NCBI GenBank assembly: GCA_905235705.1
Contig: CAJOML010000001.1
Coordinates: forward strand, 12,118-76,117
Direction of reading: 5' to 3'
DNA length: 64,000 nucleotides
DNA from: an uncultured Bacilli bacterium
GTDB lineage: Bacteria; Bacillota_I; Bacilli_A; RFN20; CAG-826
The notes beneath the pieces are model-generated. The model saw only the letters and a list, made by a program, of their open reading frames with translations. It did not search any database and was not told the origin of the DNA. Numbering within the stretch: the stretch's first letter is position 1; the number at the start of each line of letters is the position of its first letter. Position numbers and translations under genes: made by a program. Of this stretch, positions 1 to 41,782 are shown piece by piece.

Positions 1-117
1 TTCTATGTCTGCGTTAATCTTGGTTATAACTACGTCCCCCCAGAACTCGAAAACCGCTCACTCCTCATCGATGGCGATTTAGGAGAAATCATCACCAGTT
101 TGGCAAAGGCAAAATAA
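1..117 (+). CDS. 3' end of an upstream CDS (C-terminal 38 codons, partial at window edge)
   Basis: Frame 1 is open from position 1 to a TAA at 115-117, followed by a hairpin terminator. Product is unidentifiable from the fragment. Confidence 0.3.
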   Translation, partial: FYVCVNLGYNYVPPELENRSLLIDGDLGEIITSLAKAK

Positions 118-150
118 AAATCCGAACCTATTCGTATATGCGGTTCGGAT
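107..150. terminator. Bidirectional rho-independent terminator (stem 120-128/142-150)
   Basis: Inverted repeat atccgaacc ...13 nt... ggttcggat. It is preceded by an A-run on the plus strand, which is a T-run for the minus-strand gene ending at 241. Confidence 0.55.
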
Positions 151-240
151 ATAAATGGCTTTTTGTCTTTATATGCCCATTTTGATACAAGGAACCGATT
201 TGGCTTTGGAGGAACCGCTTTTGAATCGACGGAACCACAT

Positions 241-2040
241 TTAGTAACGGTCGTCTTCATCATATGGATTATCTTCATTTTCCATATAATCATAAACCAT
301 ATAATTGACAAGCCTTCTTCTGACCTCTTCTTCAGGTAGTTCATCAACTAATTCCTCATATCTTTTACTTATTTCTTCGATTTTCTTATCGTATTCTCTT
401 TCTCTTTCTTCCAAATGTTCATAATAATGATTTCTTTCATCTATTGCTTGTTGGGCTTCATCAGGAAATATAGAAAAATACACCGCCATTTTATGCTTAC
501 AAATTGTTGATTTGCCAGCGGCATGAGGACAAGTGCAAGTGGATTTTCTAGGGTGGTTTATATTTAAATGAACATGATAATTTTCTGTTCCTTCTACTTC
601 GGCCTCATACTCATATTCATTTATTCTGTTTATTGATTTAACCCTATTGTTTTCGAAGTATTCTAGACCTCTCCAGTAAGAGTTATAACTACATATTTCT
701 CTCATTCCCATTATTGAATAATCTCCCAATACCCTGTTTTTCTCGATTCCATTCTCTTTAATATATCTTTTTTCATCACTATAAATAGTAGGTTTAGATT
801 TGCCTATTTTTTTAGATAATTCTGGAATAGTAATGTATTTGTTTTTTCTAATTTCACCTAGTATTGTTTTATCCAAATCGTTTATCTTATCGTTTATCTT
901 ATCATTTATCTTATCATTTAGAAAATTAGTATTTCTTAAAAATGTGAACGTGAAGCCAAATTCGTCGTTCTTATATTCGTAATCAACATTATTCTTAATA
1001 CACAAAGTAAAAGTTCTATCGAACCCGGTTCCAAATGCATCAATATATCCACACTTATAAAGGACTGATGCTATTAAAATATTCCGAATTTTGCTTCCAA
1101 TTTCTGATGAAGCAAATTTCATTGGATCTAAATTTTTATAAATTGATCCAGGATTATAGATGTTAATGGACGATTTAAAAATAACAATTTGATTGAAGTC
1201 GCCTTTAATATCATATTTACTATGAGCAAAACTATTAACTACTATCTCTCTAATGGCATTTAATGGAACTTCTGGCGTTTCAACTCTTTGTATGCCAATA
1301 ATATCCGATTTGTAGGAAATATGATTTTGAATATAAGAAGTTGCTTCCTTAATACACTCAAATATATTTCCTCTAAATTCTTTTATTTCACCAAACTCTG
1401 TCCTTGTATCTGTTGGATAATTAGCCTCTTTTAGCACAATTGGTTTTCCGTTTCCAAACAAATAGTAACCAGCTGTTTTTATTCTTCCGTTTTCATCAAC
1501 TAAATCCAGTTTAGTCAAAGCCTCACGAACATTTCTATATACATAATTCAGCCTGCCTTTGTCATTCGCAGTTCTAATAACATCAATAAGAAGTTCTTCA
1601 TCAATATCATCAAAAGAATAGTTAGTAGGTTTATCTTCCCATCTAGAATAATTGTCCTCTTTTTCTTCAAAATATTTTTGAAGCTGATTATTACTCATGG
1701 GAATATCGCCGTCGTCTACACGATAATAATAGCGGCCATAAGCCGAGTATGGAGTGTCGTCGCCTTCAACATAAACTCTAATGACGTCAACATTTTCATA
1801 TTTTATAGTCTTTACTTCTAGTTCAATCGGAAGAGGTTTTAAATTCGTTCTAATTTCATTAGAAATATCGGAAAGTGTTTTCTTTGAAATATCAAATCTA
1901 TAAGGCTTTTTTTCTGGAGTAATGCCAAAGAATAATTCACCTTTATGATTCTTATTCAGCATTGAGCTGAGTGAAATGACTCCTTCTTTCAATTGAGCCA
2001 AAGATTTTTTGTATTCGATAAGCGTGTTTTCGTCTTTCAT
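241..2040 (-). CDS. Schlafen/AlbA_2-domain protein with central ATPase-like/HTH region and C-terminal SWIM-type zinc finger; contains in-frame KIND x4 repeat
   Basis: 599-aa ORF. The N-terminus matches the AlbA_2 'divergent AAA' signature (EYKKS... GELFFGI...YRVDDGD). The C-terminus has C-x-C-x(n)-C-x-H (CTCPHAAGKSTICKH) typical of SWIM. GGAGG RBS 5 nt before the ATG. The gene is about 30-33% GC against about 47% in its surroundings. Confidence 0.65.
   Translation of the reverse strand: MKDENTLIEYKKSLAQLKEGVISLSSMLNKNHKGELFFGITPEKKPYRFDISKKTLSDISNEIRTNLKPLPIELEVKTIKYENVDVIRVYVEGDDTPYSAYGRYYYRVDDGDIPMSNNQLQKYFEEKEDNYSRWEDKPTNYSFDDIDEELLIDVIRTANDKGRLNYVYRNVREALTKLDLVDENGRIKTAGYYLFGNGKPIVLKEANYPTDTRTEFGEIKEFRGNIFECIKEATSYIQNHISYKSDIIGIQRVETPEVPLNAIREIVVNSFAHSKYDIKGDFNQIVIFKSSINIYNPGSIYKNLDPMKFASSEIGSKIRNILIASVLYKCGYIDAFGTGFDRTFTLCIKNNVDYEYKNDEFGFTFTFLRNTNFLNDKINDKINDKINDLDKTILGEIRKNKYITIPELSKKIGKSKPTIYSDEKRYIKENGIEKNRVLGDYSIMGMREICSYNSYWRGLEYFENNRVKSINRINEYEYEAEVEGTENYHVHLNINHPRKSTCTCPHAAGKSTICKHKMAVYFSIFPDEAQQAIDERNHYYEHLEEREREYDKKIEEISKRYEELVDELPEEEVRRRLVNYMVYDYMENEDNPYDEDDRY
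877..920. repeat. 12-bp tandem repeat ATCRTTTATCTT x3.7 inside the CDS (encodes KINDKINDKINDKIND)
   Basis: Direct reading: atcgtttatctt atcgtttatctt atcatttatctt atcattta. Confidence 0.9.
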
Positions 2041-2058
2041 ATAAGCTCCTCCGCTTCG

Positions 2059-2091
2059 AATTTATCTTATCATTTATCTTATCATTTATCA
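2059..2091. repeat. Same 12-bp repeat (ATCATTTATCTT x about 2.7) in the 5' leader of the AlbA_2-SWIM gene, 18 bp upstream of its start codon
   Basis: aatttatctt atcatttatctt atcatttatc lies between a TATAAT-like -10 (rc of 2116-2121) and the RBS. Confidence 0.9.
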
Positions 2092-2309
2092 ATAATTCCT
2101 ATGCATAAAAACGTAATTATAAGTGTAAAGAAATAGCTAGTCTGCAAAGCAAAAACGAGTCTCTTTCTAAGACTCCAAAAATGCGAAAAAGCCTTTGCAA
2201 TTTGGTTACTCCCTCTGGGTTCTGATACATACCTACTTTTTCAAAAAAATTCGATGTAATAAAAGAAAAAATCCCTAATACGAATCGTATCAAGGATTGT
2301 GTACTTAGA

Positions 2310-2396
2310 TGGTGGCCCCCGTCGGACTCGAACCGACACCTGCTCATCACAGAGTGGATTTTGAGTCCACCGCGTCTACCATTCCACCAGGGGGCC
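2310..2396 (-). tRNA. tRNA-Leu (anticodon CAA), type II with long variable arm
   Basis: The reverse complement folds as a cloverleaf: GGCCCCCTGGTGGAATGGTAGACGCGGTGGACTCAAAATCCAC...GGTTCGAGTCCGACGGGGGCCACCA. Anticodon loop is CTCAAAA. CCA is encoded. Confidence 0.9.
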
Positions 2397-2522
2397 ATGC
2401 GTTAAGCCTATTGGCCTGCGCAGGGGTAAATATATCACTAAATTGAATGTTTGGGTATGCTTTTTCGCCTTCTTGCCTTTATTAGGACAGTTGTTAAACT
2501 TTTCCCTAACGGGAGGTTGCCT

Positions 2523-13996: not shown

Positions 13997-14830
13997 TTAT
14001 GCCTTTTGGGAAAGATATTCGTCTCGTAATTTCAGATATTCTTCATAGATATCATCGAATTGGTGATATTTGAAAACCTTATGGACTTTCTCGATATGCC
14101 ACTGCTTGATGTTATCGGTGTGGGGGTAGGGCAAATAGAATAGGCGCTTCGAGAAATGACGGACGACGGTGGACTTATGAAGGAATTTTTGGTCGTTGAA
14201 TTTTTGGGGGAGAAGTTTCTTTTTCACGCACGCCCTCTGGATGGCGGATTGGTCAGCGAAAATTAATTTCTTCTTATTAATCCATTCACGCGCTTTCTCA
14301 AATAGACCAGTCTCGCGGCATTTCTTCATATCGAATAGCAAGACCCCGGCGTTAATGTAACGAGGGTTGATGAGGTATTTCCCATAATGGTCATTGGCTC
14401 CGCCGAATTCGGCCCCTTTAAGGTCATAGTCGTAAAGAAGATGGATGTCACGGTTGAACATGATATCGGCATCTAGATAAAGAAGACGGTCGGGGATGGA
14501 TTCGACTTGATCGGCAAATAGCCTAAGCAAAGTGTAAGGGGAGCAATATGCCCCTTCATTTGGCGAATAGGAAAGCTCGCTTTCATATAGTTCGGTGACA
14601 TCGACTTTCTCGACTTTCGATTCCGGGTTGTATGATTTCATTACCTTATCTAAGAAGGCGATAAGACGGTCTGAGATAGGGGTGTATTCGGGTTTTAGCC
14701 TTGTTAAGGTCATGGTGAAAACGAAAACATGATATGCGTCATGCGAAAGGTCGCGCTTAACGACCGAGAGAAGGGAGGTTAAGATGCCGTCGAAGACCTT
14801 TTCGTTTCCGCAATATAAGAGATTAATCAT
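13997..14830 (-). CDS. Glycosyltransferase family 8-like
   Basis: DxD region LYLDADIMF and NAGVLLFD as in GT8 retaining glycosyltransferases. Confidence 0.6.
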   Translation of the reverse strand: MINLLYCGNEKVFDGILTSLLSVVKRDLSHDAYHVFVFTMTLTRLKPEYTPISDRLIAFLDKVMKSYNPESKVEKVDVTELYESELSYSPNEGAYCSPYTLLRLFADQVESIPDRLLYLDADIMFNRDIHLLYDYDLKGAEFGGANDHYGKYLINPRYINAGVLLFDMKKCRETGLFEKAREWINKKKLIFADQSAIQRACVKKKLLPQKFNDQKFLHKSTVVRHFSKRLFYLPYPHTDNIKQWHIEKVHKVFKYHQFDDIYEEYLKLRDEYLSQKA

Positions 14831-18231: not shown

Positions 18232-18310
18232 GGGGACAAGAAACGCTTAACAACAGTGGTTCACTTTATTTAAAGTGTAATCACGTCTTTTTTCCGTTAT
18301 CATATTAGCG

Positions 18311-18955
18311 ATGGAAAGACCTGCTCTGATTTTTGATTTAGACGGAACATTATGGGATGCTTGTGTCCCCGTAGGCGAAGCTTGGACGATTGTCGGGCGC
18401 CGCTATTTTGGCAAGGATTATTTAGTCAGCGCCGAGATGGCTAAATCGCAAATGGGCCGAACCATGGACGAAATCGGCAAGAATTTGTCCTACCTCGGCT
18501 TAGATGAGGACAGGATGGAAACCTTCATGAAAGAATGTTTCGATTATGAAGTGGAATATCTTAAAGACCACCCGGGCGCTTTATTCGAAGATGAAATCAT
18601 CGCCTTGAATTCATTGAAAAAGATGGGCTTCCGTTTATTCATCGTATCGAATTGCCAATGTGGCTATATCGAAAATTTCCTTCCCTTGGTCGAAGGGATT
18701 TTCGAAGACTACCTTTGTTTTGGCGATACATTATCTCCCAAGAACGTTACGATCCGTGAACTAATGAAAAAGCACCAACTTAAAGATGCCATTTATATCG
18801 GCGATACCGACCGGGATGAGGTTGCCACGCGTCTTGCTGGCCTCCGTTTCATCCATGCCGCATATGGATTTGGCAACGCGAATAATCCCGATGGAGTGGT
18901 GCGCCAATTTGGCGAATATCCAATCGTGTTAAGCGAAATTTGCAAGGATTTTTAA
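18311..18955 (+). CDS. HAD-superfamily hydrolase
   Basis: Motif I FDLDGTLWD, a later K and a DTDRD motif. Confidence 0.75.
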   Translation: MERPALIFDLDGTLWDACVPVGEAWTIVGRRYFGKDYLVSAEMAKSQMGRTMDEIGKNLSYLGLDEDRMETFMKECFDYEVEYLKDHPGALFEDEIIALNSLKKMGFRLFIVSNCQCGYIENFLPLVEGIFEDYLCFGDTLSPKNVTIRELMKKHQLKDAIYIGDTDRDEVATRLAGLRFIHAAYGFGNANNPDGVVRQFGEYPIVLSEICKDF

Positions 18956-18959
18956 GATT

Positions 18960-19358
18960 ATGGATGAAGAAAACAGCGAGATAAAAGTCGTAAGCGATAC
19001 TGAATTTGTCTTAAGCGAAAGCCAAAAAGACATCATTAAAGAAGGCATCGAAAAAGTCGAGACCCTCAATGATTTCATCTCCGTTTTCGTCACCGCCGAT
19101 TCCTTTGTCCGGGCCCAAGGATCCCCCAGCGAAGAATACGAAGTTTTATTCCGCTCTACCCAAAACGCGATAAACATGATGTCTGATACTTTGAATTTCC
19201 CTGAGGATATCAAAGTCATGTCCCCGATTGTCTTCATGATGTTATTTTCAGCCTATTTGACTTTTATCCACGTCTATTCAAGCGAAGAACAAGAAAGCCT
19301 TGGGCAAGCCTTACTAGAGGCGACTGGTGTGATTAAGAAAAACACCCCTAAAGCGTGA
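18960..19358 (+). CDS. Hypothetical acidic protein (first gene of 4-gene operon)
   Basis: 132-aa ORF. Starts 5 nt after the HAD gene stop. Confidence 0.45.
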   Translation: MDEENSEIKVVSDTEFVLSESQKDIIKEGIEKVETLNDFISVFVTADSFVRAQGSPSEEYEVLFRSTQNAINMMSDTLNFPEDIKVMSPIVFMMLFSAYLTFIHVYSSEEQESLGQALLEATGVIKKNTPKA

Positions 19359-19408
19359 ACACTTGCGCGCTACGCGAAAGGGTTTAAAATATGCCAAGAG
19401 GTAATTTT

Positions 19409-19696
19409 ATGGAAAAAGACGCAGTTAAGTCTTTGGAACAACTTGTCCAACAAGCCAAAGAAAGAAACGCCGCCCTCAACGAAGAGGTAGACCAAGCCCT
19501 AAGCGAGTCTTTAGCTAACTATGGTGCTTCCCAAGAAGCTACTTTAAAATCGGCCGAAGAACTTTACGAGGAAACCTATCGCGACATTCAGTTGCGGGCT
19601 AAAAGAAGTATCCGCGAGCAAGATGAAAAATCGACCCAATCCCTTTTAAATGTCTATCACGGAACGAAAAAAGAGGAGGAACAGCAAGATGCCTGA
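19409..19696 (+). CDS. Hypothetical small acidic coiled-coil protein
   Basis: AGAGG RBS 8 nt before ATG 19409 (ORF track starts at 19391). Predicted helical. The stop overlaps the next start. Confidence 0.45.
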   Translation: MEKDAVKSLEQLVQQAKERNAALNEEVDQALSESLANYGASQEATLKSAEELYEETYRDIQLRAKRSIREQDEKSTQSLLNVYHGTKKEEEQQDA

Positions 19697-19970
19697 GAAT
19701 ACAGTTAGCCCAGAACTTCTTGCGGCGGTGACAGAGCGCCACCTTGCCGAAGAAGAACGTGCCCGCTCCTATTCCCTCAAAAGGGAACAAATCGCCTCCT
19801 CGGTTACCTTGACGGTCGAAAAATTAAACAAAACGAGCCAAGACGTGACCGCTTCCCAAATCCAGACAATGGAACAATTTTCCGCTTGTGTCGCCTCCAT
19901 TAATGCCTCTTATGCTGACTTAGTAAGGAAGATCAAAGAGGTCGGTCCCGAAGAAAGCGAGGGTGAATAA
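19689..19970 (+). CDS. Hypothetical small acidic helical protein
   Basis: GGAGGA RBS before ATG 19689. 8-nt overlap with the upstream gene (ATGCCTGA). Confidence 0.45.
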   Translation: MPENTVSPELLAAVTERHLAEEERARSYSLKREQIASSVTLTVEKLNKTSQDVTASQIQTMEQFSACVASINASYADLVRKIKEVGPEESEGE

Positions 19971-19971
19971 T

Positions 19972-21855
19972 ATGTCTGAACGCATCATCATTGCCCAAGG
20001 GCAGACGCCCGAAGCCATTCAAAAGGAAACCGAAGAAATCCGCAAAGAGATCGAATCCATCAAAGCCATTCGCCCTTATGCTGAAATCAATTTGGAAAAG
20101 ACCGAGGAACAAATTCACCGTGTTGGCGATAATTTAGGGAAAATCGCCGAACTCGAAGGTAAGTTCGCCGCATTAGAAGCCCTATGCGATTCTTTTATCA
20201 AAGGACGCGAAGATATTGCCCACTATGGCAAACTCTCGGAAGAGATCGTTGCTTTTGTCCGCGAACTTGTCGCCCAAAAACGTTATGGAGAAGCCCGCGA
20301 AGGCGCCAAGTTGCTTTTGAATAAATTCTTGACCCTCGATTATGGGTTCACCTTAAAACTGCAGAAAGCCATTCAGGAAATCGAAGGCCATCTCATCGCG
20401 GAAGTTTATTTCCAAGAAAACGAGAACCATATCGAAGAAAATACTCCCTTTGAAGAAGAGAATCTTAAAGCCTATGAAGAGCTTATTCCCGAATTAGGCG
20501 TTGAGCTCGATGGTGAAAAGAGCCGTTATTTCCATGCCGACCGGATCATCGGCTTCCGTTATGTCGATGCTTACCGCGCTTACGAAGAAAAAATCGATGG
20601 ACCCGAAGCCTTAATGAACGCAGTCATTCTCGATGGCGAGCTCAATAAAGGCGGTCTTGAACTGTCTGAAGTTACCCAAGATCGCAGGAAATTATTCCTT
20701 GATTTGATCCAATCCCGTTTTGATGTTCTTTCCCAAGAGGCTTTTGTCGGAGAAGTCTATGAGAACGCCCTCTTCTATTATGAACATCGCGATTGCATCG
20801 ATGTCAGTCTCTTAACCAGACAAGAATATTGTCTCCCGACCGAAGAAGAGTTCCACATGGCTTTCCTTAGCGAACGTGCCTCAAGGATGACGGCCGACGA
20901 ATTCTTTGCTTTCGCCAAGAGCTTAGAACCTTCCATTATTGCCGGGGATGCATTCACGATTTGTTTTGTCTCTTTGATGCTTTCTTCGGAAAAACTACCC
21001 GAATCCAAATTCGAATTGTTGGCCGCCTCTTTAGCGGGATGTGGCTTCGAAGCTTTGTTAATCGTCTTCGGTAAAGCGATGGATAACGGGCTTAGCGAAG
21101 AAAGACAATTCTCCTTGCTAAGTATGCTTATTCACGAGAAGAAGAAGGTTTGCACCTTGGATAAGGTCGCCCCCGCCCTTCTTGTCCTTGATCAGAAACT
21201 TGCCCCCTCGCAGCAAAAAGCATATGGGGCTTTACGCCGCGATTTGTTGCGTTCACCCCACAGCAAAAAAGCCATCGTCAAATCAAATGACGAATCTACC
21301 CATGCCTTGGTTGGCGAAACCAAAGCCACCTTCCGTGCACCGATGGGCAAGAAAATCAAAAACCCAAAAATCAAATCTTGGGATTTCATGTCGAAGCTAT
21401 TCTATGTGGCCTTTGCCATTATCCTCCCCTTGCTTTTAGCAGGTACTGCCGCAGCATTGATTTCGTTTACCCAGCTCGGTGATTCTTGGAAATACATTCT
21501 TTATATCGCTCCCTTTGCCGCTGCCATCATCGTTGCCATGATTGCCATCGATTACCGCTTCGGTCTTGATGAACGTGGATCTGGCGTGTGGGGATGGTTC
21601 TTCCTTTGGATTGGTTTGGCGCTTGGGGTTTGCGCTTTGCTGATCTTCATCTTCCCCGACTTTGCCAAGACAAATAACCTCCCAGTTTATGCCGGCTACA
21701 GTATCCTTGGTGCCTCGGCTGTCCTAGGAATCGCTTCTGCCTTCATCAAGGTGAAGAAGAAAAAATTCTATTTTGCTATCCAAGGTATCTTGCTCCTAGT
21801 CGTCATTGGCGCTTCCGTTATGCTCGCTTTGAGATTAATGAACGGCCTTATCTAA
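19972..21855 (+). CDS. Hypothetical protein, large cytoplasmic domain plus C-terminal 4-TM anchor
   Basis: GAGGG RBS before ATG 19972, immediately after the upstream TAA. The last 150 aa form 4 hydrophobic helices. Confidence 0.55.
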   Translation: MSERIIIAQGQTPEAIQKETEEIRKEIESIKAIRPYAEINLEKTEEQIHRVGDNLGKIAELEGKFAALEALCDSFIKGREDIAHYGKLSEEIVAFVRELVAQKRYGEAREGAKLLLNKFLTLDYGFTLKLQKAIQEIEGHLIAEVYFQENENHIEENTPFEEENLKAYEELIPELGVELDGEKSRYFHADRIIGFRYVDAYRAYEEKIDGPEALMNAVILDGELNKGGLELSEVTQDRRKLFLDLIQSRFDVLSQEAFVGEVYENALFYYEHRDCIDVSLLTRQEYCLPTEEEFHMAFLSERASRMTADEFFAFAKSLEPSIIAGDAFTICFVSLMLSSEKLPESKFELLAASLAGCGFEALLIVFGKAMDNGLSEERQFSLLSMLIHEKKKVCTLDKVAPALLVLDQKLAPSQQKAYGALRRDLLRSPHSKKAIVKSNDESTHALVGETKATFRAPMGKKIKNPKIKSWDFMSKLFYVAFAIILPLLLAGTAAALISFTQLGDSWKYILYIAPFAAAIIVAMIAIDYRFGLDERGSGVWGWFFLWIGLALGVCALLIFIFPDFAKTNNLPVYAGYSILGASAVLGIASAFIKVKKKKFYFAIQGILLLVVIGASVMLALRLMNGLI

Positions 21856-21979
21856 CCCTGCAAAAACGGTTTATTCTATTTGAAATTTAAAGCAAAAATC
21901 ACCTGCTAAGAAACTCCCTGTACCACAAACAAAGTTTCAATCCGCAGGTGATTTGCGCGTTTAATGGACTTTTTAGTTC

Positions 21980-22008
21980 TTGCATCCGCGCGCTCGCTAT
22001 ATATAATG
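21980..22008 (+). promoter_or_regulatory. Sigma-A type promoter TTGCAT-N17-TATAAT for the 22034 gene
   Basis: Hexamers at 21980-21985 and 22003-22008 with a 17-nt spacer, followed by an AAAGGAG RBS. Confidence 0.55.
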
Positions 22009-22033: not shown

Positions 22034-23104
22034 ATGAAAAAAGGTCGCGTCATCGTTGCCCTTATCCTCAATGTCCTGATCCTCGGTGTTATTGGCTTTG
22101 CTTTAGTCAATCGCGCAGTTGGGTTTATGCCCAATTCCGTGCCGGTCAGCTTTGCGGAGATGGTTAAGTCTTACATCAACGATGCAAGCATCATTTTATT
22201 TGTCGCCGCTTTGCTTTCCCTTATCGGCGACATCACCATCCTTGCCGGTAAAAAGCCAAACAAGTTTGTCAATGTGTTCAAACTCATTGGCGCCACTGGT
22301 GGCTTGGTGATTACCGCTGGGGTCCTTGCCTATTGCATTCCCTTTGGCTATGGCGGGTGGACAATTAACTTCGTCACCGACTATTACTATGGATTGCTTC
22401 TTGTCCTCGTCGCCCCTGTCCTTGGCTTAATTTCCGCCATCTTGGAAGGGCAACCCAAACTCAAATGGCCCTATGCCTTCTTTGGTTTGATCGTTCCTGG
22501 TGTCTATGCCATCGCCAACTATGTCTTTGCGATGGTTAAAATCCAAGGCTTTGAATGGTATGACACCTATCATTTATTCCAGTGGCAAGATATGACCGGG
22601 CTTTGGATTAGCGTAGCTGTCCTTGGTTCGTTTGCCGTTGGTTCCTTCCTCATCGCGTACTGCATTGTCATGCTCCGCCGCATTGGCAAGAAGCAAGAAG
22701 AAGTTCCTGCTGTCGAACCCGTTGCTGAACCCGCACCTGTGGCTGAAGAAGCCAAATCCGAAGAGCCCGCTCCTACCGAGGAGTCCAAACCTGAAGAACC
22801 CAAATCCGAAGAGCCTGCTCCAGCCCAACCTCAACCCTCGAAAAAAGTTCTTGCCCGTCGTCGCCGTTCTGCTCCTGTGGCCGCCCCGCGTCGCGCCGTC
22901 CCGACTGGACGCCCTGGCCCTCGTGTTTACCACGTTGCCAAGCATCCTAGCGGCCAATGGTCGATTAAACTTGCTTCCTCCGATAAGGTTATCAAACTCT
23001 TTGATACCCAAGCCGAAGCAATCGCTTATGCCAAGGGCTTAGTCGAAAGCCGTGGCGGATCGGTCAGAATCCACTCCGTCTCCGGAAGACTTCGCAAAGA
23101 ATAA
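22034..23104 (+). CDS. Polytopic membrane protein with Pro/Glu-rich linker and C-terminal DUF2188-like domain
   Basis: About 7 TM helices, then EPAPVAEE repeats, then a C-terminal YHVAKHPSGQWSIK...FDTQAEAIAYAKGL..GGSVRIHSVSGR matching the DUF2188 pattern. Confidence 0.6.
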   Translation: MKKGRVIVALILNVLILGVIGFALVNRAVGFMPNSVPVSFAEMVKSYINDASIILFVAALLSLIGDITILAGKKPNKFVNVFKLIGATGGLVITAGVLAYCIPFGYGGWTINFVTDYYYGLLLVLVAPVLGLISAILEGQPKLKWPYAFFGLIVPGVYAIANYVFAMVKIQGFEWYDTYHLFQWQDMTGLWISVAVLGSFAVGSFLIAYCIVMLRRIGKKQEEVPAVEPVAEPAPVAEEAKSEEPAPTEESKPEEPKSEEPAPAQPQPSKKVLARRRRSAPVAAPRRAVPTGRPGPRVYHVAKHPSGQWSIKLASSDKVIKLFDTQAEAIAYAKGLVESRGGSVRIHSVSGRLRKE

Positions 23105-23174: not shown

Positions 23175-23654
23175 ATGGAAAGACGACTCAATGGACGATT
23201 GGTTGCCTCCGTCTCCCTCTTCTTAGCTACATTAATCTTATTAATCGTTATTGTCGCGATTGATTATGGCGTTGGCATCCGGGCCAGCATTGGCAATGGG
23301 CCTTACGACGATTTCGTGGCGACGATGAGATTTGGCCTTGGCGGATTATATGGAATATTCGGTTCGATTATCTTCTATGGTGGAATCGTCTTATTTATCG
23401 TTTCCTTTATTTATTTCTATATTAAGAAAACCCTCCGTTATATATTCTTACCGATTATTGGCATTTCCGCTTTTGAGATTGGGGCTTATATGCTCCAGTG
23501 CGTTTCTTATAGAGACGTAGCTGGTTTGCCAAGTTGGTATGGTGGATTTGCGATATTCGCCGTCGCGGCTTCGCTAAGCTTCGGTATTGCCGCCTTTACA
23601 TTAAGTTTTGTCTTCCCAAGACTGCTCATAAAAAAAGCCAACGATCCAGATTAA
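23175..23654 (+). CDS. Small membrane protein (4 TM), unknown function
   Basis: AAGGAGG RBS. Hydrophobic profile. Confidence 0.5.
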   Translation: MERRLNGRLVASVSLFLATLILLIVIVAIDYGVGIRASIGNGPYDDFVATMRFGLGGLYGIFGSIIFYGGIVLFIVSFIYFYIKKTLRYIFLPIIGISAFEIGAYMLQCVSYRDVAGLPSWYGGFAIFAVAASLSFGIAAFTLSFVFPRLLIKKANDPD

Positions 23655-23678: not shown

Positions 23679-24665
23679 TCATTCTTCTATTATTGGGTTT
23701 TCCGGTTTTCCATATGCCTCAAACACAGAAGAAAGAGGATCATTATGGATAACGCGCTCAATGCATTCGGCGAGCATCGAAGCTAGAGAAACAACGCGAA
23801 TGTTTTTCAAGGCACTGAAGCGTTTTGGCAAAGGAATGGAATCGGTGACGATGATTTCGTCGAAGGGCTTATCTTTTAATAAGTCATAGCAAGGGTCGGA
23901 GAAGACCGGGTGAACGGCGGCGATACGAACTGATTTAGCACCAGCGGCACGTAAGGCCTTTGCCCCGATGATAGCTGAGCGCCCCGTATCGATCATATCA
24001 TCGATCATGAAGCAATCTTTGCCAGCGACAGAACCAATGATTTCCATGACTTCGGGTTCATTGTTATGCTGGCGACGTTTATCGATGATGGCGATGGGGT
24101 GCCCTCCTAAAGAAACGGCAAGGTCACGGGCGCGTTTAACCCCGCCATGGTCAGGGGAAACGACGATGGTGTTCTCCAAATCCGTGTCAGAATTTAGAAT
24201 TGCCGAACCTAGAAGCGGAACGGCGGTCAAATCATCGACAAGGCAAGAGAAGAAGCCCTGGATTTGGGCGGCGTGGAGATTGACTGTGACGACGCGGTCA
24301 ACCCCGGCAGTGGTCAAAAGATGCGCCACCAAAGCGGCGGTGATGGGTTGCCTGGGTTTGGCTTTGCGGTCTTGTCTAGCATAACCAAAATAGGGACAGA
24401 TTAGATTAATCTCTTTCGCCGAGGCGCGCTTCAAGGCATCGATGAAAATCAATACCTCAAAAATATTATCGTTAACAGGAGGGCAAGTGGGTTGGATGAT
24501 AAAGACTTGCTTGCCGCGAACGGTTTTAATTGGCTCGACGATGATTTCGCCAGAAGGGAAATGCTTAATGGAAACTTCGGAAAGCTCAGTCCCTAACTTT
24601 TTGGCAATCGCCTTAGCGAGTTCGGGGTTCCCCGAGAGGGAGAATACGGCGGCATTTTCATTCAT
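23679..24665 (-). CDS. prs: Ribose-phosphate pyrophosphokinase
   Basis: GYARQDRK, a PRPP-binding loop and a size of 328 aa. Confidence 0.9.
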   Translation of the reverse strand: MNENAAVFSLSGNPELAKAIAKKLGTELSEVSIKHFPSGEIIVEPIKTVRGKQVFIIQPTCPPVNDNIFEVLIFIDALKRASAKEINLICPYFGYARQDRKAKPRQPITAALVAHLLTTAGVDRVVTVNLHAAQIQGFFSCLVDDLTAVPLLGSAILNSDTDLENTIVVSPDHGGVKRARDLAVSLGGHPIAIIDKRRQHNNEPEVMEIIGSVAGKDCFMIDDMIDTGRSAIIGAKALRAAGAKSVRIAAVHPVFSDPCYDLLKDKPFDEIIVTDSIPLPKRFSALKNIRVVSLASMLAECIERVIHNDPLSSVFEAYGKPENPIIEE

Positions 24666-24765
24666 AGGTTTTCCTCGCAGACGGCTTAATTATAAATGCG
24701 CACGTGTGGAGCAGGTAATATTTTTAGATTAATCTCACCGTTCATTAGTGTATAATGCGACCAAT

Positions 24766-25326
24766 ATGAAAAAGGTCGTCCTTACAGAAAAAGAGATTTC
24801 ATCTATTTGCCAAAAGCTCGGCGAAACCATTTCTGCCCAGTATCAAAGCAATGAAAAGCCCCCTGTCTTAATCTGCGTTATGAATGGGGCGCTGAATTTC
24901 ACGGCCGATTTAATGAAACATCTAACGATTGACGTTGCCTTTGACTATGTCCAAGTCAAATCTTGGGAAGGAACGAAATCGACTGGCCAAATCCAAATGG
25001 CCAAAGAAGTGTCGACCCCATTGGACGGACGCGATGTGATCATCGTGGAAGATATCGTCGATACGGGGCTATCCATGCATTATCTTCTCCATCACCTAAA
25101 TCAAAAGTTCAAACCGAAATCAATCAGGATTTGCGCTCTTTTCGATAAACCGTTAGGAAGAAAAATACCCGTCAAAGTTGACTTCGTCGGGTATCGTCTT
25201 GATCATGATGAATTCTTAGTCGGCTATGGCCTTGATTATAAAGGCCTAGTCCGCAATGTCCCTTATGTCTTTGTTCCCAGCGAAGAGGAAATACTCCATT
25301 GGGATGAACTGACCGACAAAGATTAA
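24766..25326 (+). CDS. hpt: Hypoxanthine-guanine phosphoribosyltransferase
   Basis: VIIVEDIVDTGLSM PRPP motif. The ORF track begins at a GTG at 24748 that lies inside the gTGtATAAT promoter element, so ATG 24766 is preferred. Confidence 0.8.
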   Translation: MKKVVLTEKEISSICQKLGETISAQYQSNEKPPVLICVMNGALNFTADLMKHLTIDVAFDYVQVKSWEGTKSTGQIQMAKEVSTPLDGRDVIIVEDIVDTGLSMHYLLHHLNQKFKPKSIRICALFDKPLGRKIPVKVDFVGYRLDHDEFLVGYGLDYKGLVRNVPYVFVPSEEEILHWDELTDKD

Positions 25327-25952
25327 TCGAGGGTTCCGTAAATACGATCGCCTGCATCGCCAAGTCCAGGAAGGATGTAGGCTTTTTCGTTTAAGCAGCG
25401 GTCTAATGCTCCGATATAGAGAACGACTTCGGGATTTTCTTGGGTGAAGCGTTTCACCCCTTCAGGAGCGGCGATGATGCAACAGAAGGCAATGACATTG
25501 GCTCCTTTTTCTTTTAATAATTTGACGGCATCTCCAGAGGAGCCCCCGGTCGCAAGCATTGGGTCAAGAAGAATGACTTTTTTATTTTCCAAGTGAGTGG
25601 GCAGTTTGGCATAAGAGAGGTGGGAGAGAAAGGTTGCTTCATCTCGGGCCATCGCGATGAAGCCTTCGCTAGCGCAAGGCAGCATTTCCCTGGCCCCGTC
25701 TCCCATCGCTAAACCCGCCCTTAAAATCGAGACGAAGCAAATTTCCTCATCTTCTAAAGTCAAGCCGGTGCAGGTTTCTAAAGGCGTTTCGACTTGGATT
25801 TGCTTTCCCTGAAAAGTTTTCAATGCTTCGTAGGTCTCAATCATTCCGATTTCTTTGACGATAGAACGGAATAGGCCAGGGCGAGTGGCTTTGTTTCTAA
25901 GGATGGAAATCTTGTGATTAATAACCGCGTTTGACAAAATGATGGGTTCCAT
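25323..25952 (-). CDS. upp: Uracil phosphoribosyltransferase
   Basis: Upp-like sequence with the LLDPMLATGGS PRPP motif. GGAGG RBS before ATG 25952. The ORF-track N-terminal extension is rejected. Confidence 0.8.
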   Translation of the reverse strand: MEPIILSNAVINHKISILRNKATRPGLFRSIVKEIGMIETYEALKTFQGKQIQVETPLETCTGLTLEDEEICFVSILRAGLAMGDGAREMLPCASEGFIAMARDEATFLSHLSYAKLPTHLENKKVILLDPMLATGGSSGDAVKLLKEKGANVIAFCCIIAAPEGVKRFTQENPEVVLYIGALDRCLNEKAYILPGLGDAGDRIYGTLD

Positions 25953-25980
25953 AATAGCCTCCATTAAAAAGAAATCCCCA

Positions 25981-26496
25981 TCAATGGGGATATTTGACAA
26001 GAGAGAAGAAGGGAGCGGAAACTTTGTCTTTTCCGTTAAGGTCAGTGAGCTCGATAAGAGTAACGATGCCAACAACCTCGATGCCTTCCTCTTTTAACAT
26101 AGATTCGAGGACGGCAAGGGTTCCGCCTGTTGCCATGAGGTCATCGGCGAGGACGACCCTAGTCCCTTTCTTTAAGCCAAAGGCAGGAATCTCAAGGGTG
26201 TCGGTGCCATACTCAAGTTCATAAGTTTTGGCAATTGTCTTGCCTGGCAATTTGCCTTTTTTTCTGGCCATGAGGAAGCCTTTGCCAAGAGCGTAGGCAA
26301 GGGGAGCGCCGACGACGAATCCGCGCGCCTCGGGTCCGATGATGATATCGGGATTCAAAGGGGCAACGATGTCTTTGAGCTCCGCGATTGCGGAAGAAAA
26401 GGCCTCGCCATTAGAAAGAAGGGGGGAAATATCCTTGAACGAAATCCCGGCCTTAGGGAAGTCTTCTTGGATACGAATGTGTTGTTTGTAATCCAT
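25981..26496 (-). CDS. apt: Adenine phosphoribosyltransferase
   Basis: FKDISPLL, VVLADDLMATGGT and a size of 172 aa. Confidence 0.85.
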   Translation of the reverse strand: MDYKQHIRIQEDFPKAGISFKDISPLLSNGEAFSSAIAELKDIVAPLNPDIIIGPEARGFVVGAPLAYALGKGFLMARKKGKLPGKTIAKTYELEYGTDTLEIPAFGLKKGTRVVLADDLMATGGTLAVLESMLKEEGIEVVGIVTLIELTDLNGKDKVSAPFFSLVKYPH

Positions 26497-26519
26497 ACCG
26501 AGGGATATTCTACTAGGTC

Positions 26520-27125
26520 TTGGATAAAGTTCAATTGGCAAACTGCCCTTTGGGCATTATGATAATCACCATGAACACCGAAAAAGAAAAATTATTAAAA
26601 AAAGTGAAGTTGGTCTATAGCCTTGAACTGGCTATCTTTTTTGCCATCTTCGCTGTCCTTGGGACTCTCTTCCTCACCCAAGTCATCTCCGTCGCAGACT
26701 GGAAGCGAATCGCCTTCTCCTATGTCACATTGATCGGCGGGACGTGGTTGATCATCGATTTTATTTGGATGCTGGCTTCTAAAAAAAGAAGGGCCAAAAA
26801 TTCCTTCTTCGACAAAATCATCGTCTTACCAGCCGCTATCACCGTCATCTGTTTTGATATCTATGCGTTTGCCAATGGCTTAGTCCATATTCCTGAAGGC
26901 GTCGAGACCTCCCCCTTGTTCCGTTATTTCATCGGCATCGATATCCTCTATCTCGCCTTTTGCTATCTTGCCCAGATTATCTACCACTGGTTCCGTCCGC
27001 TCCCCTCTCTTATCATTGCCGTCGAAGACGCTTTAAAAGAAGAGGAAGAAGAAGCCAAGAAAGAGATGGCGTTAGAGCAGGAAAAGGTTGAAGAAAAGCC
27101 TGAAGAACCTAAAGAAAAAGAATAA
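26520..27125 (+). CDS. Membrane protein with acidic Glu/Lys-rich C-terminal tail
   Basis: 4 TM helices followed by EEEEEAKKEMALEQEKVEEKPEEPKEKE. Confidence 0.45.
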   Translation: MDKVQLANCPLGIMIITMNTEKEKLLKKVKLVYSLELAIFFAIFAVLGTLFLTQVISVADWKRIAFSYVTLIGGTWLIIDFIWMLASKKRRAKNSFFDKIIVLPAAITVICFDIYAFANGLVHIPEGVETSPLFRYFIGIDILYLAFCYLAQIIYHWFRPLPSLIIAVEDALKEEEEEAKKEMALEQEKVEEKPEEPKEKE

Positions 27126-27142
27126 TAAAGCGGGGATTTGCT

Positions 27143-27832
27143 ATGATTTGTTTTGTTTTTGCCATGGATAAAGAAGCCACTTTCTTGCTTGATTCCTACC
27201 CCCATAAACAGCAGCAGATTGGCTTCGCGAAATATTATGAATGCGAAGGTCCACACGGAAAATTTGCCGTCTTGGTTAGCGGCATTGGGAAGGTGTTTGC
27301 CGGAAGTGCTTTATCTGCTTTACTTGCCTTAAAAAAGGACGAAATCGATGGGGTTATCAATCTTGGCGTCGGAGGAAGCTTAAATGGTGAGAAGGCCGGT
27401 TTGTTCTCTTGCCTAATCGGTTCCGCTTATCTCCAACACGATTTGGACACTTCCCCGATTGGCGACCCAATCGGCATGGTTTCCGGAATCAATGTCATTC
27501 GTTTCCCCGGTCATGAGAAATTGATGGAAGCGGTGGCTAAGGCATGTACTGAAAATGGCATCGGCTGCGAAAACGGAACAATTTGCTCAGGTGATCAATT
27601 CATCGCTGCGGAAAAACAAAAAGAAGAGATCCTAGCTAAATTCGAAGATGCCGTTAGCATCGATATGGAAAGTGCCGCCTTTGCTCAGGTCGCCTATGTC
27701 TATGCAGTGCCTTATGTGGCAGCTAGATTTATCTCTGACGTTAACGCACCTGAGGAATATCACAAGAATCTTCCTGTGTGCGCTCAAAAATTGGCTATCG
27801 TTGCTAAGTGGTTAATTGACCATATCTGTTAA
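27143..27832 (+). CDS. mtnN: 5'-methylthioadenosine/S-adenosylhomocysteine nucleosidase
   Basis: PNP_UDP_1 fold motifs (GIGKV, SIDMESAA). 229 aa. Confidence 0.8.
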   Translation: MICFVFAMDKEATFLLDSYPHKQQQIGFAKYYECEGPHGKFAVLVSGIGKVFAGSALSALLALKKDEIDGVINLGVGGSLNGEKAGLFSCLIGSAYLQHDLDTSPIGDPIGMVSGINVIRFPGHEKLMEAVAKACTENGIGCENGTICSGDQFIAAEKQKEEILAKFEDAVSIDMESAAFAQVAYVYAVPYVAARFISDVNAPEEYHKNLPVCAQKLAIVAKWLIDHIC

Positions 27833-38203: not shown

Positions 38204-41200
38204 TCACGGGGTAACCGAATATCCCGTGTTTTTATAACGACTATTCGAATTTGTTTTGCCATAAGTTGAGTTATACATCGCGTTGCTGGCGGTCATGGCG
38301 TTGCTGTTAATGTTGTAATGGGTATATTTAATAAGCCAGCCGCTCGTGTATGACGAATAAGAATACATATTTACTTTGTGCGAGGAACTAGTCCAAGCAT
38401 TGGTATAAGCCCCAGAAGAAGCGATGTTGGAAATTGATAAATTGAAAGAGGCAGTCGCGGCTTGGATGCCGATTAATGAAAGACCGAAACTGCCGCTTGC
38501 TGAATACAAAGATTTCTTTGAATATCCGCTATATGTGGCGGTTTTGCCGGAGATATTGATGACAAAGTCGGTTAATATGCTGGTCCCAGTCAATCCCTCC
38601 ATCCCGATGGTTAATCGCCAAGATGGATTGGTGGTGTTTCCGCTTGAGGTAACGCCTTTGACGATGTCTTCGCCATGTAATGCTCGGTCGGAGGAAATGT
38701 CGTCTAGGCTAGAGGTAAGACTGCTTTTCATGCCTAAAATGTAGTTCAATAACCATTTCAATATGTTATCCATGAAATTTTCCCCGGTGACACGTTTATA
38801 ACTCTCACTAAAGTCATCGGAGAATACGGTGCTTGGTTCATGAACGTAACGCCGGAAGAATAAGTCTCCTCCAGTTTGGTTATCCCCATCGTTTTCATAA
38901 AATAGGTTAACGTAAGTATTTCCATCGTTTACCAAAGTTATTTTGGGGGTATAGATTGCCCCTACCATCTTGATCTCGGTTCCATCAAGGTAGACGACTA
39001 AATTTATTGTGATGGTCGTTTTTATACCAACGATCGACAAGACGACATTTCCTGAAATGTGGTAGGTGGTTAAGGTCGAAGAATCGGTTACGCCCAAGGT
39101 AATTGTCCCTAGCAAGAAGTCGATTAATTGTTTTAAACACGAATATGAGGTGAAAGAGGAAATGGATGGATTTTCACCCCAATTAAAATCGCTAGCCCTA
39201 GATAAACTGGTTTTGGCCAATTCGATCTTGACGTAGATTTCGCTTCCTTCCGAAGAGGATAAAGAAGGCATATAGAGCTCAATATATTTAGGGAGCCCCT
39301 TCTTTACGTTTCCTTCAACGATGCGGTCTTCACCATAGGTGATACGTAAAGAAGTGGGGACGTTTTCTTTGATTAAGGACGGCTTTAAGACAAACGTGTC
39401 GACGTTGGTCACATTATTGATATCGACGGAAGATAAAATGCCCGAAGAAACGACTTCGAGATATTGTCCCTTCATAATGGCGCCGAAGGTGGTCTTGGTT
39501 TTTAAATCGGTGAAAGCGGAAGTCAAACGTTTAAAACGTGGATCGGTGGAGGTCAATAACTCGGTGAGGGCGTCGAGAACACCGTTCATCGAATGGATGG
39601 AGAAGCGTCCATTCAACCCGTTTTTATTGGTAGGATCAGTAGGTGAATAGTTGCGATTGGTTGAAGTGTTATATCCGTTTTTGGCTTGGCTAGTGTTCAC
39701 CGAGGAATAGGAGAAAAGCATCATTCCGCCGGCACTAGTGTCATTACCCGAGAAATCGCCATTGGTCCAATTTGTCTCTTCCTCATCTGAAGAGGCTTCT
39801 AATGGGGCTCCGGTGACGTCGATTGCGAGGGTATGGTCGTTGATGTAATTCTCTTTACGGTCGGTGAAAATGACCTTCCCAGTCCCGATTTTGTTATACA
39901 AATCGAATCCGAGGCTACCGTTAAAAAGCATGCCCTGTTCATTTAGGTTCTTCGTCCCATCCCAGCTTGAGACGCTTTGGCGGATGTTGCTATGGTTATC
40001 GCTACCTTTTTTGGAAATATAGCCGCTGATATTGGCCTGAACCTGGGTGTTAGGAGATTCTTTTGTGCCGGCAGCATCGGCAATATATTCGTCCCAGCTT
40101 GGTAAATGGGCCATTTCCTGATAGGAAGAAAGGTCCAGGGCATCGATTTTGGCATTAGAAAAGGGTCTTAAGGTCAATAGACCGTCTAAGGTGAAAGTCA
40201 AATTGGGAGAATTTGTCGTGACTATGCCGACTTGATCAAGATCAATCGAAAGGAGGCTGGTGGCCGAATCGGTGGCGTCTAAAGTCGCCGATACCTTCCC
40301 TACCATTTTGGCTTGGAAACCTGTGCCATTTAACTTATCGAGGTCAACTCTCACAATCAATTTGTTTTGGCTCACCCTTAGCGTTGAAATCGCCTCGACG
40401 GCGGTGTGATATTGGCCTGAATCGATGACATTATAGATAGCCGAACCGGTTACGGCGTCAAGAGCGTTAGTGATGGAATCCATGGAAGCCACAACACCGG
40501 CAATGAGGTTTTTGATGGTGTCGTTTTGGATTCCTTCCATGCCTAAGGCTTCTTTTAATGTGGTGGCAAGGGAGGAAAGAGTGGACATTCCGGTCGAGGC
40601 CTTCATCACGCTTTCGTTTAAGGCGATGTAGGCTTTGGTATCTTCTGTTTCTTCTTGAAGAAGAAGGGATATCTTTTCTTGATTGCCGTTCATCGATAAA
40701 GCGGCCTCGCCGAATACTTTTTCAAATGCCCCACCTTCAAAAGAGGCGTCGGCAGATAGGCTTAAGGTCGCGTTTTCGGTGACGGCGTCACGCGAGAAAG
40801 CGGTGGAAGAACCTTCAACCGCCTCTTCGTGGTGGTAGATATTAAACGAGGCATCAATGCCAAACCGTTTGCTAGAAACATAGTCGCCCACATCTTTGAT
40901 GAGATCGATGGAAGAGGAGATTTCAACATAAGACTCGGGATCTTCAGGGGTAAGGTTTTTGATGGTGGTGGCAGGACTTATGGAGGCGGAGAAAGATATC
41001 TCTAAGCCGTCTTCGCTTTGATAGGGGCTTTCTCCTTTTAAGGGAAAATCGATGCCAGATAAAACGGCGGAAGAATTGGCGATTAGGCCAAAGGATAAGG
41101 TCTTCTCGCCTAGAGGCAGGTCATAACGGAAGTAGCCGGATTCGATTTCCTCGATTTGGTCAAAGGAGGCTTTGATTTTGTCCCCGTCAATGGTAATGCC

Positions 41201-41782
41201 ACCGTGTTTAGGCGAAGTTAAAGAAATAGCGGGCAGGTTCCAGGCGTCGAAAAGGGAGTAAAGGAAATAATCGAAGAGGCCATATTCGTAATATTCGATG
41301 CCCCTTGTGGAACTATCTTGCGAGGTAATAGCCTCGACTTGGCTGGGTTCAAGTCTGCTTTTTAGGCGAATCCCATTATTTTCCCCAGGCCAGCTTAGAC
41401 CGACATAGATTTCGTCATCTTCTAGCGACAGCCCAAAGCTACGTTCGACTTGACGGTTATAACTTAGCGTAGCCGCCATGCCGAAAGTGAGTTGATGGAG
41501 GGAAAGCCCATCAAGACGGACATATCCGTGCCCTTCATCGGCCAAAGAAAGGATGTTGTCTCCCTTCCCTTCTTTCCCGGGGATATTAAGCGAAAACGAA
41601 TTGAAATTCAGATCTAGCCCTTTATTTAGCCCCTCTTCAAATTGCTTGGAAATCGGGGCGCTAGGGGCTTCAAGAACCGGGGTGATTTCAGAATGCTCAG
41701 GCGTGGTGTTGACGCAGCTACACAAAAGTAGGCCAATTAGGCCTAGGAGGAGGTAGGGTTTAAACAAGGAAGAGCCACGCAT
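38204..41782 (-). CDS. Very large surface lipoprotein (1192 aa), paralog of 42638..46696
   Basis: Lipobox LLCSC. Ser/Thr/Asn-rich. Shared blocks with the 1352-aa protein (LSLH..., YYEYG.D..., GIDFP...). Confidence 0.6.
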   Translation of the reverse strand: MRGSSLFKPYLLLGLIGLLLCSCVNTTPEHSEITPVLEAPSAPISKQFEEGLNKGLDLNFNSFSLNIPGKEGKGDNILSLADEGHGYVRLDGLSLHQLTFGMAATLSYNRQVERSFGLSLEDDEIYVGLSWPGENNGIRLKSRLEPSQVEAITSQDSSTRGIEYYEYGLFDYFLYSLFDAWNLPAISLTSPKHGGITIDGDKIKASFDQIEEIESGYFRYDLPLGEKTLSFGLIANSSAVLSGIDFPLKGESPYQSEDGLEISFSASISPATTIKNLTPEDPESYVEISSSIDLIKDVGDYVSSKRFGIDASFNIYHHEEAVEGSSTAFSRDAVTENATLSLSADASFEGGAFEKVFGEAALSMNGNQEKISLLLQEETEDTKAYIALNESVMKASTGMSTLSSLATTLKEALGMEGIQNDTIKNLIAGVVASMDSITNALDAVTGSAIYNVIDSGQYHTAVEAISTLRVSQNKLIVRVDLDKLNGTGFQAKMVGKVSATLDATDSATSLLSIDLDQVGIVTTNSPNLTFTLDGLLTLRPFSNAKIDALDLSSYQEMAHLPSWDEYIADAAGTKESPNTQVQANISGYISKKGSDNHSNIRQSVSSWDGTKNLNEQGMLFNGSLGFDLYNKIGTGKVIFTDRKENYINDHTLAIDVTGAPLEASSDEEETNWTNGDFSGNDTSAGGMMLFSYSSVNTSQAKNGYNTSTNRNYSPTDPTNKNGLNGRFSIHSMNGVLDALTELLTSTDPRFKRLTSAFTDLKTKTTFGAIMKGQYLEVVSSGILSSVDINNVTNVDTFVLKPSLIKENVPTSLRITYGEDRIVEGNVKKGLPKYIELYMPSLSSSEGSEIYVKIELAKTSLSRASDFNWGENPSISSFTSYSCLKQLIDFLLGTITLGVTDSSTLTTYHISGNVVLSIVGIKTTITINLVVYLDGTEIKMVGAIYTPKITLVNDGNTYVNLFYENDGDNQTGGDLFFRRYVHEPSTVFSDDFSESYKRVTGENFMDNILKWLLNYILGMKSSLTSSLDDISSDRALHGEDIVKGVTSSGNTTNPSWRLTIGMEGLTGTSILTDFVINISGKTATYSGYSKKSLYSASGSFGLSLIGIQAATASFNLSISNIASSGAYTNAWTSSSHKVNMYSYSSYTSGWLIKYTHYNINSNAMTASNAMYNSTYGKTNSNSRYKNTGYSVTP

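Follow-up and report, generated by a model that had tools for sequence, protein, structure and literature searches.

In a 64,000-nucleotide stretch of DNA from an uncultured Bacilli bacterium (contig CAJOML010000001.1, positions 12,118 to 76,117; hereafter the window), a cassette of four co-directional open reading frames (ORFs) on the forward strand, here called g1 (18960-19358), g2 (19409-19696), g3 (19689-19970) and g4 (19972-21855), very probably constitutes a real conserved gene module without detectable relatives among described protein families. The first three encode small proteins of 132, 95 and 93 residues, whereas g4 encodes a 627-residue protein predicted to be integral to the membrane, with its N-terminus inside and its C-terminus outside the cell. 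We propose that the cassette specifies a cytoplasm-facing membrane scaffold, whose components would assemble in fixed stoichiometry at the inner membrane face, and we put the probability of this reading at roughly 35%. An original prediction drawn from the same DNA had likened the four genes to secretion-substrate or membrane-associated cytoskeletal modules, and we weigh both comparisons below.

The cassette qualifies as a module because it is conserved across different genomic neighbourhoods, and not because its genes are coupled. A word-indexed search of 5.8 billion proteins returned 8 relatives of g4 and just 12 clusters for g2, and an exhaustive hidden Markov model (HMM) search of 1.84 billion cluster representatives (clusters at 50% identity) gave 44 matches for the g4 family, 40 of them at E ≤ 1e-30 and nearly all 590-639 residues long and aligned end to end, the short ones being fragments. 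Every complete member shares one architecture and falls into this single length class, and no protein sharing just one of the g4 domains was found by the HMM search. With 11 further distinct loci the window makes up a set of 12 (two near-identical copies of the window locus exist besides, and L006 and L007 represent the same locus), and all ORFs of the fetched loci were scored with HMMs of g1-g4 and with the sequence of the HAD-family hydrolase encoded immediately upstream of g1. At 12 of 12 loci g2, g3 and g4 are adjacent and in the same order, and they were not seen apart at any locus examined; in L014 the position of g3 is taken by a 61-residue ORF that lies below detection by the g3 HMM. 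g1 is found at 11 of the 12 loci and is missing from L010 (33% GC), where the 700 bp upstream hold no ORF. Apart from g1 in L010 and g3 in L014, the cassette proteins are conserved at 16-55% identity across the 11 further loci, and the order g(1)-g2-g3-g4 holds at g4 identities down to ~20% and at GC contents of 33-53%.

The surroundings of these loci fall into distinct types. In the first (the window and L001-L004), genes for an M18 aminopeptidase and the HAD protein lie upstream, with GT8 glycosyltransferase, acyltransferase and nucleotide-salvage genes further out; in L009 a ROK-family gene stands upstream of the HAD gene in place of M18. A second type has a divergent MscS channel gene and the HAD gene (L008, L014), a third has MscS and YjbR without HAD (L005-L007), and in a fourth the cassette lies in an island of NERD, ATPase and type I restriction-modification genes (L010). 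As the gene order is kept across at least four different neighbourhoods, the cassette moves as a unit, and the comparison across genomes suggested with the original prediction thus finds the genes kept together. The nearest named genomes that carry it are metagenome-assembled genomes (MAGs) of 'Bacilli bacterium' from goat rumen, the remaining samples are rumen metagenomes, and a metagenome scan contributed three more loci only, all of them fragmentary. No relatives of the cassette were found on IMG/VR viral contigs, and tblastn of g4 against plasmid and phage records gave no match. We read the cassette as a chromosomal operon whose distribution is restricted to a lineage of uncultured rumen Bacilli. 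A broad alignment (A7) was too divergent for deriving search patterns.

None of the four proteins had been recognised as a member of a known family in the original prediction, and profile and structure searches agree. Scans of g1-g4 against Pfam-A, NCBIfam, PADLOC and PHROGs gave no match at meaningful E-values: g3 has chance-level PADLOC matches only (E 0.009-0.03), and g1, g2 and g4 have none in PADLOC or PHROGs. When 39 g4 members were searched singly against Pfam, no family was matched by more than two of them and the matches were coiled-coil noise, and alignment profiles of g1-g4 run against all Protein Data Bank (PDB) sequences likewise returned coiled-coil or designed-helix noise only. 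With structural models as queries, Foldseek found nothing below E = 0.02 for g4 in PDB and BFVD, the neighbours being generic HAT, TPR and HEAT solenoids (best E 0.02, template-modelling score, TM-score, ≤ 0.2), and nothing below E = 1 for g1 in PDB. The four families thus stand outside every described family and solved fold searched; 'new' here means without a relative detectable by those searches, and not new in function.

An entirely deflationary explanation is that the four are unrelated, lineage-specific hypothetical genes that share no function and happen to be packed side by side in a compact genome. Overlapping or abutting genes are indeed frequent in the window (for example at 14827/14830, 11190/11196 and 55228/55228), which makes coupling alone weak evidence for a functional link, and the genome holds many other orphan genes, including window ORFs at 38204-41782 (reverse strand), 42638-46696 (reverse strand) and 56197-63612 (forward strand), whose products of 1191, 1351 and 2471 residues have no Pfam match (E ≤ 1e-4 or 1e-5). 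In a genome so rich in large orphan proteins, an orphan cassette is less of a surprise. Chance packing, however, does not account for a gene order that persists in at least four unrelated neighbourhoods, nor for g2, g3 and g4 never being apart at the loci examined, and we give this explanation next to no credence.

The local arrangement points to a transcription unit somewhat larger than the cassette. The stop codon of g2 and the start codon of g3 overlap as ATGCCTGA, and the stop of g3 is followed by the start of g4 as TAAtATG, while a gap of 50 nt lies between g1 and g2, so that two of the three junctions abut or overlap and not all three, as had been described. ATGA-type overlaps recur at cassette junctions in other loci. 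Shine-Dalgarno-like motifs precede g2 (AAGAGGT), g3 (GAGGAGG) and g4 (GAGGGTGA), and the one before g1 is weaker (AAGGA). Longer starts (ATG at 19391 for g2, ATG at 19650 for g3 and GTG at 19963 for g4) have no support, as homologues align from the shorter ones, and independent gene callers behind public collections give exactly 95, 93 and 627 residues for g2, g3 and g4. Upstream, the HAD gene ends 4 nt before g1 starts, and it is itself preceded by a weak sigma-70-like match on the forward strand (TTAACA-18-TAAAGT, 18247-18276), a match to consensus only that is a possible start of the transcription unit. Downstream, an 11-bp inverted repeat on the forward strand (AAATCACCTGC at 21896-21906 and GCAGGTGATTT at 21944-21954) begins 40 nt past the g4 stop; its RNA fold scores z = -2.45, and L002 keeps the stem through a compensatory T>A / A>T change. 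This repeat is probably the 3' end, or terminator, of the cassette. Between it and the next gene, a TATAAT at 22002-22007, conserved in the window and L002, probably belongs to a separate promoter serving the DUF2188 membrane-protein gene that follows. Given the 4-nt spacing of HAD and g1, the upstream promoter-like site and the downstream repeat and TATAAT, the local unit most likely comprises five genes, HAD-g1-g2-g3-g4.

The large soluble domain of g4, followed by a C-terminal membrane anchor, stood up to analysis, with a correction in the number of transmembrane (TM) helices from four to five: hydrophobicity places them at residues 479-497, 508-526, 543-561, 574-592 and 602-620 (21406-21831, forward strand), and an AlphaFold2 model likewise has five C-terminal helices in the membrane part. 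From one flank or loop to the next, lysine and arginine together number 6 / 0 / 2 / 1 / 5 / 0, a clear positive-inside pattern that indicates an N-in, C-out topology and a cytoplasmic portion of ~470 residues. The model, built from a 9-sequence alignment, is all-alpha with a mean predicted local distance difference test score (pLDDT) of 78. Residues 13-117 (20008-20322, forward strand) form a coiled-coil-like stalk (pLDDT 50-75) that includes a 58-residue helix at 44-101; the family profile of this region has a hydrophobic period of 3.4-3.45 residues (z = 8.5), which is heptad-like, and its PDB profile matches are limited to coiled-coil-type structures, namely designed coiled coils, the long helix of HA2 and vimentin. 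Residues 129-445 (20356-21306, forward strand) are modelled with high confidence (pLDDT ~90) as an all-alpha helical-repeat, alpha-solenoid-like cytoplasmic domain. Next comes a basic juxtamembrane stretch, residues 424-472 (21241-21387, forward strand), which is the most conserved in the family (DLLRSPH...KS...GE...P.GK..KNP.IKSWDF) and of which residues 456-472 are modelled as disordered (pLDDT below 50). The cytoplasmic loop between TM2 and TM3 carries an invariant G-x-D-E-R-G-S. Measured over 39 members at 19-55% identity, the invariant or near-invariant positions are L403, R427 and S428 (of DLLRSPH), K437, G459, and G531, D533 and E534 (of the G-x-DERGS loop), and they cluster solely where the cytoplasmic domain ends and at the interface with the membrane; over the N-terminal 400 residues conservation is one of structure and hardly of sequence.

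The three small proteins are acidic (isoelectric points 4.30, 4.67 and 4.80 for g1, g2 and g3), and have no N-terminal hydrophobic segment according to hydrophobicity analysis. The acidic and helical character first ascribed to them is upheld. The family profiles of g2 (alignment of 10 homologues) and g3 have alpha-helical amphipathic periodicity with z of 8.6 and 6.6, respectively; the period is 3.55-3.7 residues in both, proline and glycine are nearly absent over ~80 residues, and in g2 the periodicity is phase-coherent over residues 1-85. Both are hence predicted, from their sequence profiles, to be acidic, amphipathic, helical proteins, and the C-terminal tail of g3 homologues is variable and either acidic or proline-rich. 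g1 is modelled by AlphaFold2 as a compact five-helix bundle (pLDDT 79.7, predicted template-modelling score 0.71). Its residues 82-102 are hydrophobic at a borderline level (Kyte-Doolittle 1.71), and we considered and rejected a tail-anchored g1: conserved acidic residues in homologues and the core position of this helix in the model argue that it is not a membrane anchor. Pairwise hhalign comparison of the g1, g2, g3 and g4 profiles gave no internal homology. As a separate observation, all g1 homologues end in alanine, preceded by lysine or glutamine (-K-A or -Q-A) except in L001 (-E-A), and this -K-A/-Q-A ending also occurs where the g1 stop and the following start codon are free of overlap; it may be a functional C-terminal signal.

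Small helical proteins upstream of a large one invite comparison with type VII secretion. Type VIIb LXG effectors are preceded by small alpha-helical proteins, Lap1 (DUF3130) and Lap2 (DUF3958), that bundle with the LXG domain (PMC9600955; PMC10801868), and Lap1 bears an FxxxD export motif (PMC9600955). On this model the cassette would be a type VIIb-like effector module, with g4 as an LXG-type toxin that damages membranes, g2, g3 and possibly g1 as Lap/WXG100-like targeting factors, and the downstream polytopic proteins as immunity factors. The likeness is tangible: helical proteins of ~90-130 residues directly precede a ~600-residue protein with an elongated helical N-terminus, as at LXG loci (PMC9600955), both systems come from Bacillota, and polytopic membrane proteins follow g4 in the window, L002-L005, L009 and L010. 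None of the features tested, however, bears the reading out. No g1-g4 protein matches LXG (PF04740), WXG100 (PF06013), DUF3130 or DUF3958 at E ≤ 1, nor does any of the 39 g4 members at E ≤ 0.1; the g2 and g3 alignments lack FxxxD, DxxTxxxGN, a central W-x-G and any conserved central tryptophan or glycine, and the invariant F64 of g3 sits in FxxxV rather than FxxxD. Conservation in g4 is highest in the C-terminal membrane part (427-459, 531-534) and lowest N-terminally, the reverse of a polymorphic toxin, and the complete members, with their one architecture and one length class, have no C-terminal polymorphism; five canonical TM helices in a positive-inside topology also speak against such a toxin. 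The gene after g4 varies from locus to locus (TM proteins with DUF2188 or with DUF1508, an unrelated polytopic protein, RnfC in L007, MarR in L008, a reverse-strand MazG in L014), so there is no obligate immunity gene, and neither an FtsK/EssC-type ATPase gene nor any other gene of the secretion apparatus (EsaA, EssB) turned up in the scanned ORFs of the window or the gene calls of the fetched flanks. We consider an effector module very improbable and set aside the secretion-substrate analogy of the original prediction, while a principle that the two systems may share, a helical bundle of small proteins with a long N-terminal helix, is plausible for g2, g3 and g4.

The same helical signatures could alternatively belong to a membrane-attached cytoskeletal or morphogenetic element, in which g2 and g3 would polymerise together with the g4 stalk into filaments or a lattice that the TM helices hold at the membrane and that shapes or divides the cell. 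The cytoskeletal comparison of the original prediction agrees with the coiled coils and helical repeats seen here. Coiled-coil and amphipathic-helix features run through g2, g3 and the g4 N-terminus, the only profile matches are to coiled-coil proteins (vimentin, designed coiled coils, spectrin-like repeats), and g4 is a single-copy chromosomal gene in a housekeeping context. Against this reading, g2 and g3 are short (~90 residues) compared with the proteins known to form filaments; genes for division or cell shape do not adjoin the cassette; and the Pfam and NCBIfam models of DivIVA, bactofilin, EzrA and PspA/IM30/ESCRT-III match none of g1-g4. EzrA in particular resembles g4 in combining a membrane anchor with a long all-helical cytoplasmic domain, but it has one N-terminal TM helix and belongs to a distinct Pfam family, whereas the g4 anchor is C-terminal and has five. 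A cytoskeletal role thus strikes us as unlikely.

The gene immediately upstream of g1 (18311-18955, forward strand) offers a candidate enzymatic partner. Its 214-residue product is a HAD-IA family hydrolase (Pfam HAD_2, 1.6e-15) with the HAD fold and DxDxT nucleophile that define the superfamily (IFDLDGTLWD); its NCBIfam matches are generic HAD-IA ones and fall under the cut-off for phosphoglycolate phosphatase. A HAD gene lies directly upstream of the g1 position at 8 of the 12 loci, and no gap separates it from the M18 aminopeptidase gene in L001 and L002, where the two abut or overlap. Furthermore, on two related rumen MAG contigs HAD and the g1 homologue form one in-frame ORF of 344 residues (L001 8107-9141, L003 4332-5366). 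Identity between the two fusion proteins is 78%, and conservation extends to their g1 part; the fusion has thus been maintained and is a Rosetta-stone link between HAD and g1. Since some lineages manage without HAD or without g1, the phosphatase would be an accessory client of the module rather than its core function.

In the scaffold that we favour, g4 would be both integral-membrane core and platform, its five-TM anchor carrying, through the basic juxtamembrane segment, a helical-repeat platform of ~320 residues and the coiled-coil stalk. g2 and g3, translationally coupled to g4, would bundle with that stalk, and g1 would act as an adaptor that docks the HAD-family phosphatase onto the platform, so that a substrate could be dephosphorylated at the membrane. 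The HAD step enters the proposal because of its adjacency at 8 of the 12 loci, the 4-nt gap in the window and the maintained in-frame fusion; what the analysis itself shows is the gene structure and its conservation, the predicted topology, the modelled folds of g1 and g4, the fusion and the lack of any known family, while we infer that g2 and g3 assemble with g4, that g1 is an adaptor, and that a phosphatase works near the membrane on some substrate. Several observations argue for a scaffold: the juxtamembrane motif and the cytoplasmic loop between TM2 and TM3 are where the family is most conserved; the unbroken g2-g3-g4 linkage goes together with gene coupling, a heptad-like stalk, amphipathic g2 and g3 and a positive-inside g4; and g4 keeps to one length class of 590-639 residues, with no relatives on viral, plasmid or phage records. 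Other points weigh against it. The contacts between g2/g3 and g4 and between g1 and HAD are so far our deduction; neither a binding site nor a catalytic one can be identified in the helical-repeat domain of g4; the fusion of HAD to g1 happened once in evolution, in one clade, and might be read-through that is tolerated; HAD is missing from the vicinity of the cassette in L005, L006/L007 and L010, and g1 from L010; and tight gene packing is general in this genome, which makes adjacency alone weak evidence.

A platform of this kind has parallels in known systems. All-alpha repeat scaffolds at the cytoplasmic membrane face, which like the g4 platform presumably serve contacts between proteins, include Ypp1/TTC7 of the PI4KIIIalpha complex, returned by Foldseek among the weak neighbours of g4 (4n5c, 5dse); the similarity is generic (E 0.04-0.16, TM-score < 0.2) and gives no evidence of homology, and these scaffolds are soluble and recruited by partners, whereas g4 is anchored by its own five TM helices. 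Lipin/Pah1 with its membrane complex Nem1-Spo7 is a HAD-family DxDxT phosphatase that acts at the membrane. By analogy, the cassette may also tie a DxDxT HAD phosphatase to membrane-anchored partners, but its HAD is a generic HAD-IA protein, bears no sequence relation to lipin beyond the HAD fold, and is missing beside the cassette at 3 of the 12 loci. A bolder version of the proposal would make the cassette an unrecognised membrane machine, in which a five-TM coiled-coil and solenoid platform with two dedicated helical subunits positions enzymes at the inner membrane face, here a lipin-like HAD held by g1. Such a machine, confined to a clade of Bacilli from rumen and gut that are uncultured, would organise their lipid, glycolipid or envelope metabolism; we regard this as doubtful. 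A further point shared with the lipin case is the presence of genes for glycolipids or phospholipids: GT8 glycosyltransferase genes lie within ~5 kb upstream, on the other strand and beyond the M18 or ROK gene, in the window, L001-L004 and L009, and are joined by acyltransferase genes in the window and L001-L004 but not in L009.

The neighbourhoods of other lineages allow a further reading. MscS, together with a small single-TM protein (147-181 residues), is encoded divergently upstream of the cassette in four lineages (L005 5366-6968; L006 4203-5881, equal to L007 663-2341; L008 4491-6212; L014 2618-4383), which raises the question of a membrane-stress or osmotic module, in which the five-TM domain of g4 would act as a sensor of membrane state, and g2 and g3, as effectors or regulators, would be held back or set free by the cytoplasmic platform. 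The concentration of the most conserved g4 residues at the membrane-cytoplasm interface would suit a sensor, and the genes downstream are often membrane proteins with DUF2188 or DUF1508 (YegP). MscS is not a neighbour in the window, L001-L004, L009 or L010, however, its association elsewhere may be mere synteny among related genomes, and Pfam and NCBIfam scans of g1-g4 gave no DNA-binding, kinase or other signalling domain; a sensory role therefore seems rather improbable to us.

Should the reading as a dedicated scaffold be right, a new architecture, with a C-terminal five-TM anchor, a solenoid, a coiled-coil stalk and two small helical partners that are obligate, would join the few systems by which bacteria arrange enzymes along the inner membrane face, and poorly known rumen Bacilli, rich in orphan proteins, would gain a first functional handle. 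This significance is tempered by the narrowness of the family (44 clusters), its metagenome-only occurrence and a mechanism that we offer as a proposal. The best experimental handle is the HAD-g1 fusion, through which one could ask which phosphatase substrate is handled at the membrane.

Some features of the surroundings deserve mention in their own right. The genes after g4 often encode polytopic membrane proteins with Pro/Glu/Lys-rich linkers and a C-terminal DUF2188 or DUF1508 (YegP) domain (window 22034-23104 and 23175-23654; L004 7860-10372; L005 9932-11347), and the DUF2188 portion has further matches, one to PDC-S16, a PADLOC candidate (2.7e-11), and one to a PHROG of unknown function. 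Further downstream in the window, at 23679-27832, lies a compact nucleotide-salvage cluster that encodes phosphoribosyl pyrophosphate synthetase, HPRT-like, UPRT and APRT proteins, a conserved 201-residue membrane protein with a Glu/Lys-rich tail, and a methylthioadenosine/S-adenosylhomocysteine nucleosidase, and that is syntenic in L001 and L002. In L010 (5667-17887, 33% GC) the g1-less cassette sits among NERD, ATPase_2, helix-turn-helix and type I restriction-modification genes, possibly a mobile or defence island. Finally, the start of the window (1-2400) looks like an island acquired at a tRNA gene: its first 2 kb have 32% GC against ~45% elsewhere, and a Schlafen AlbA_2 / HATPase_c_4 gene (241-2040, reverse strand) lies there beside a tRNA gene (2313-2396).

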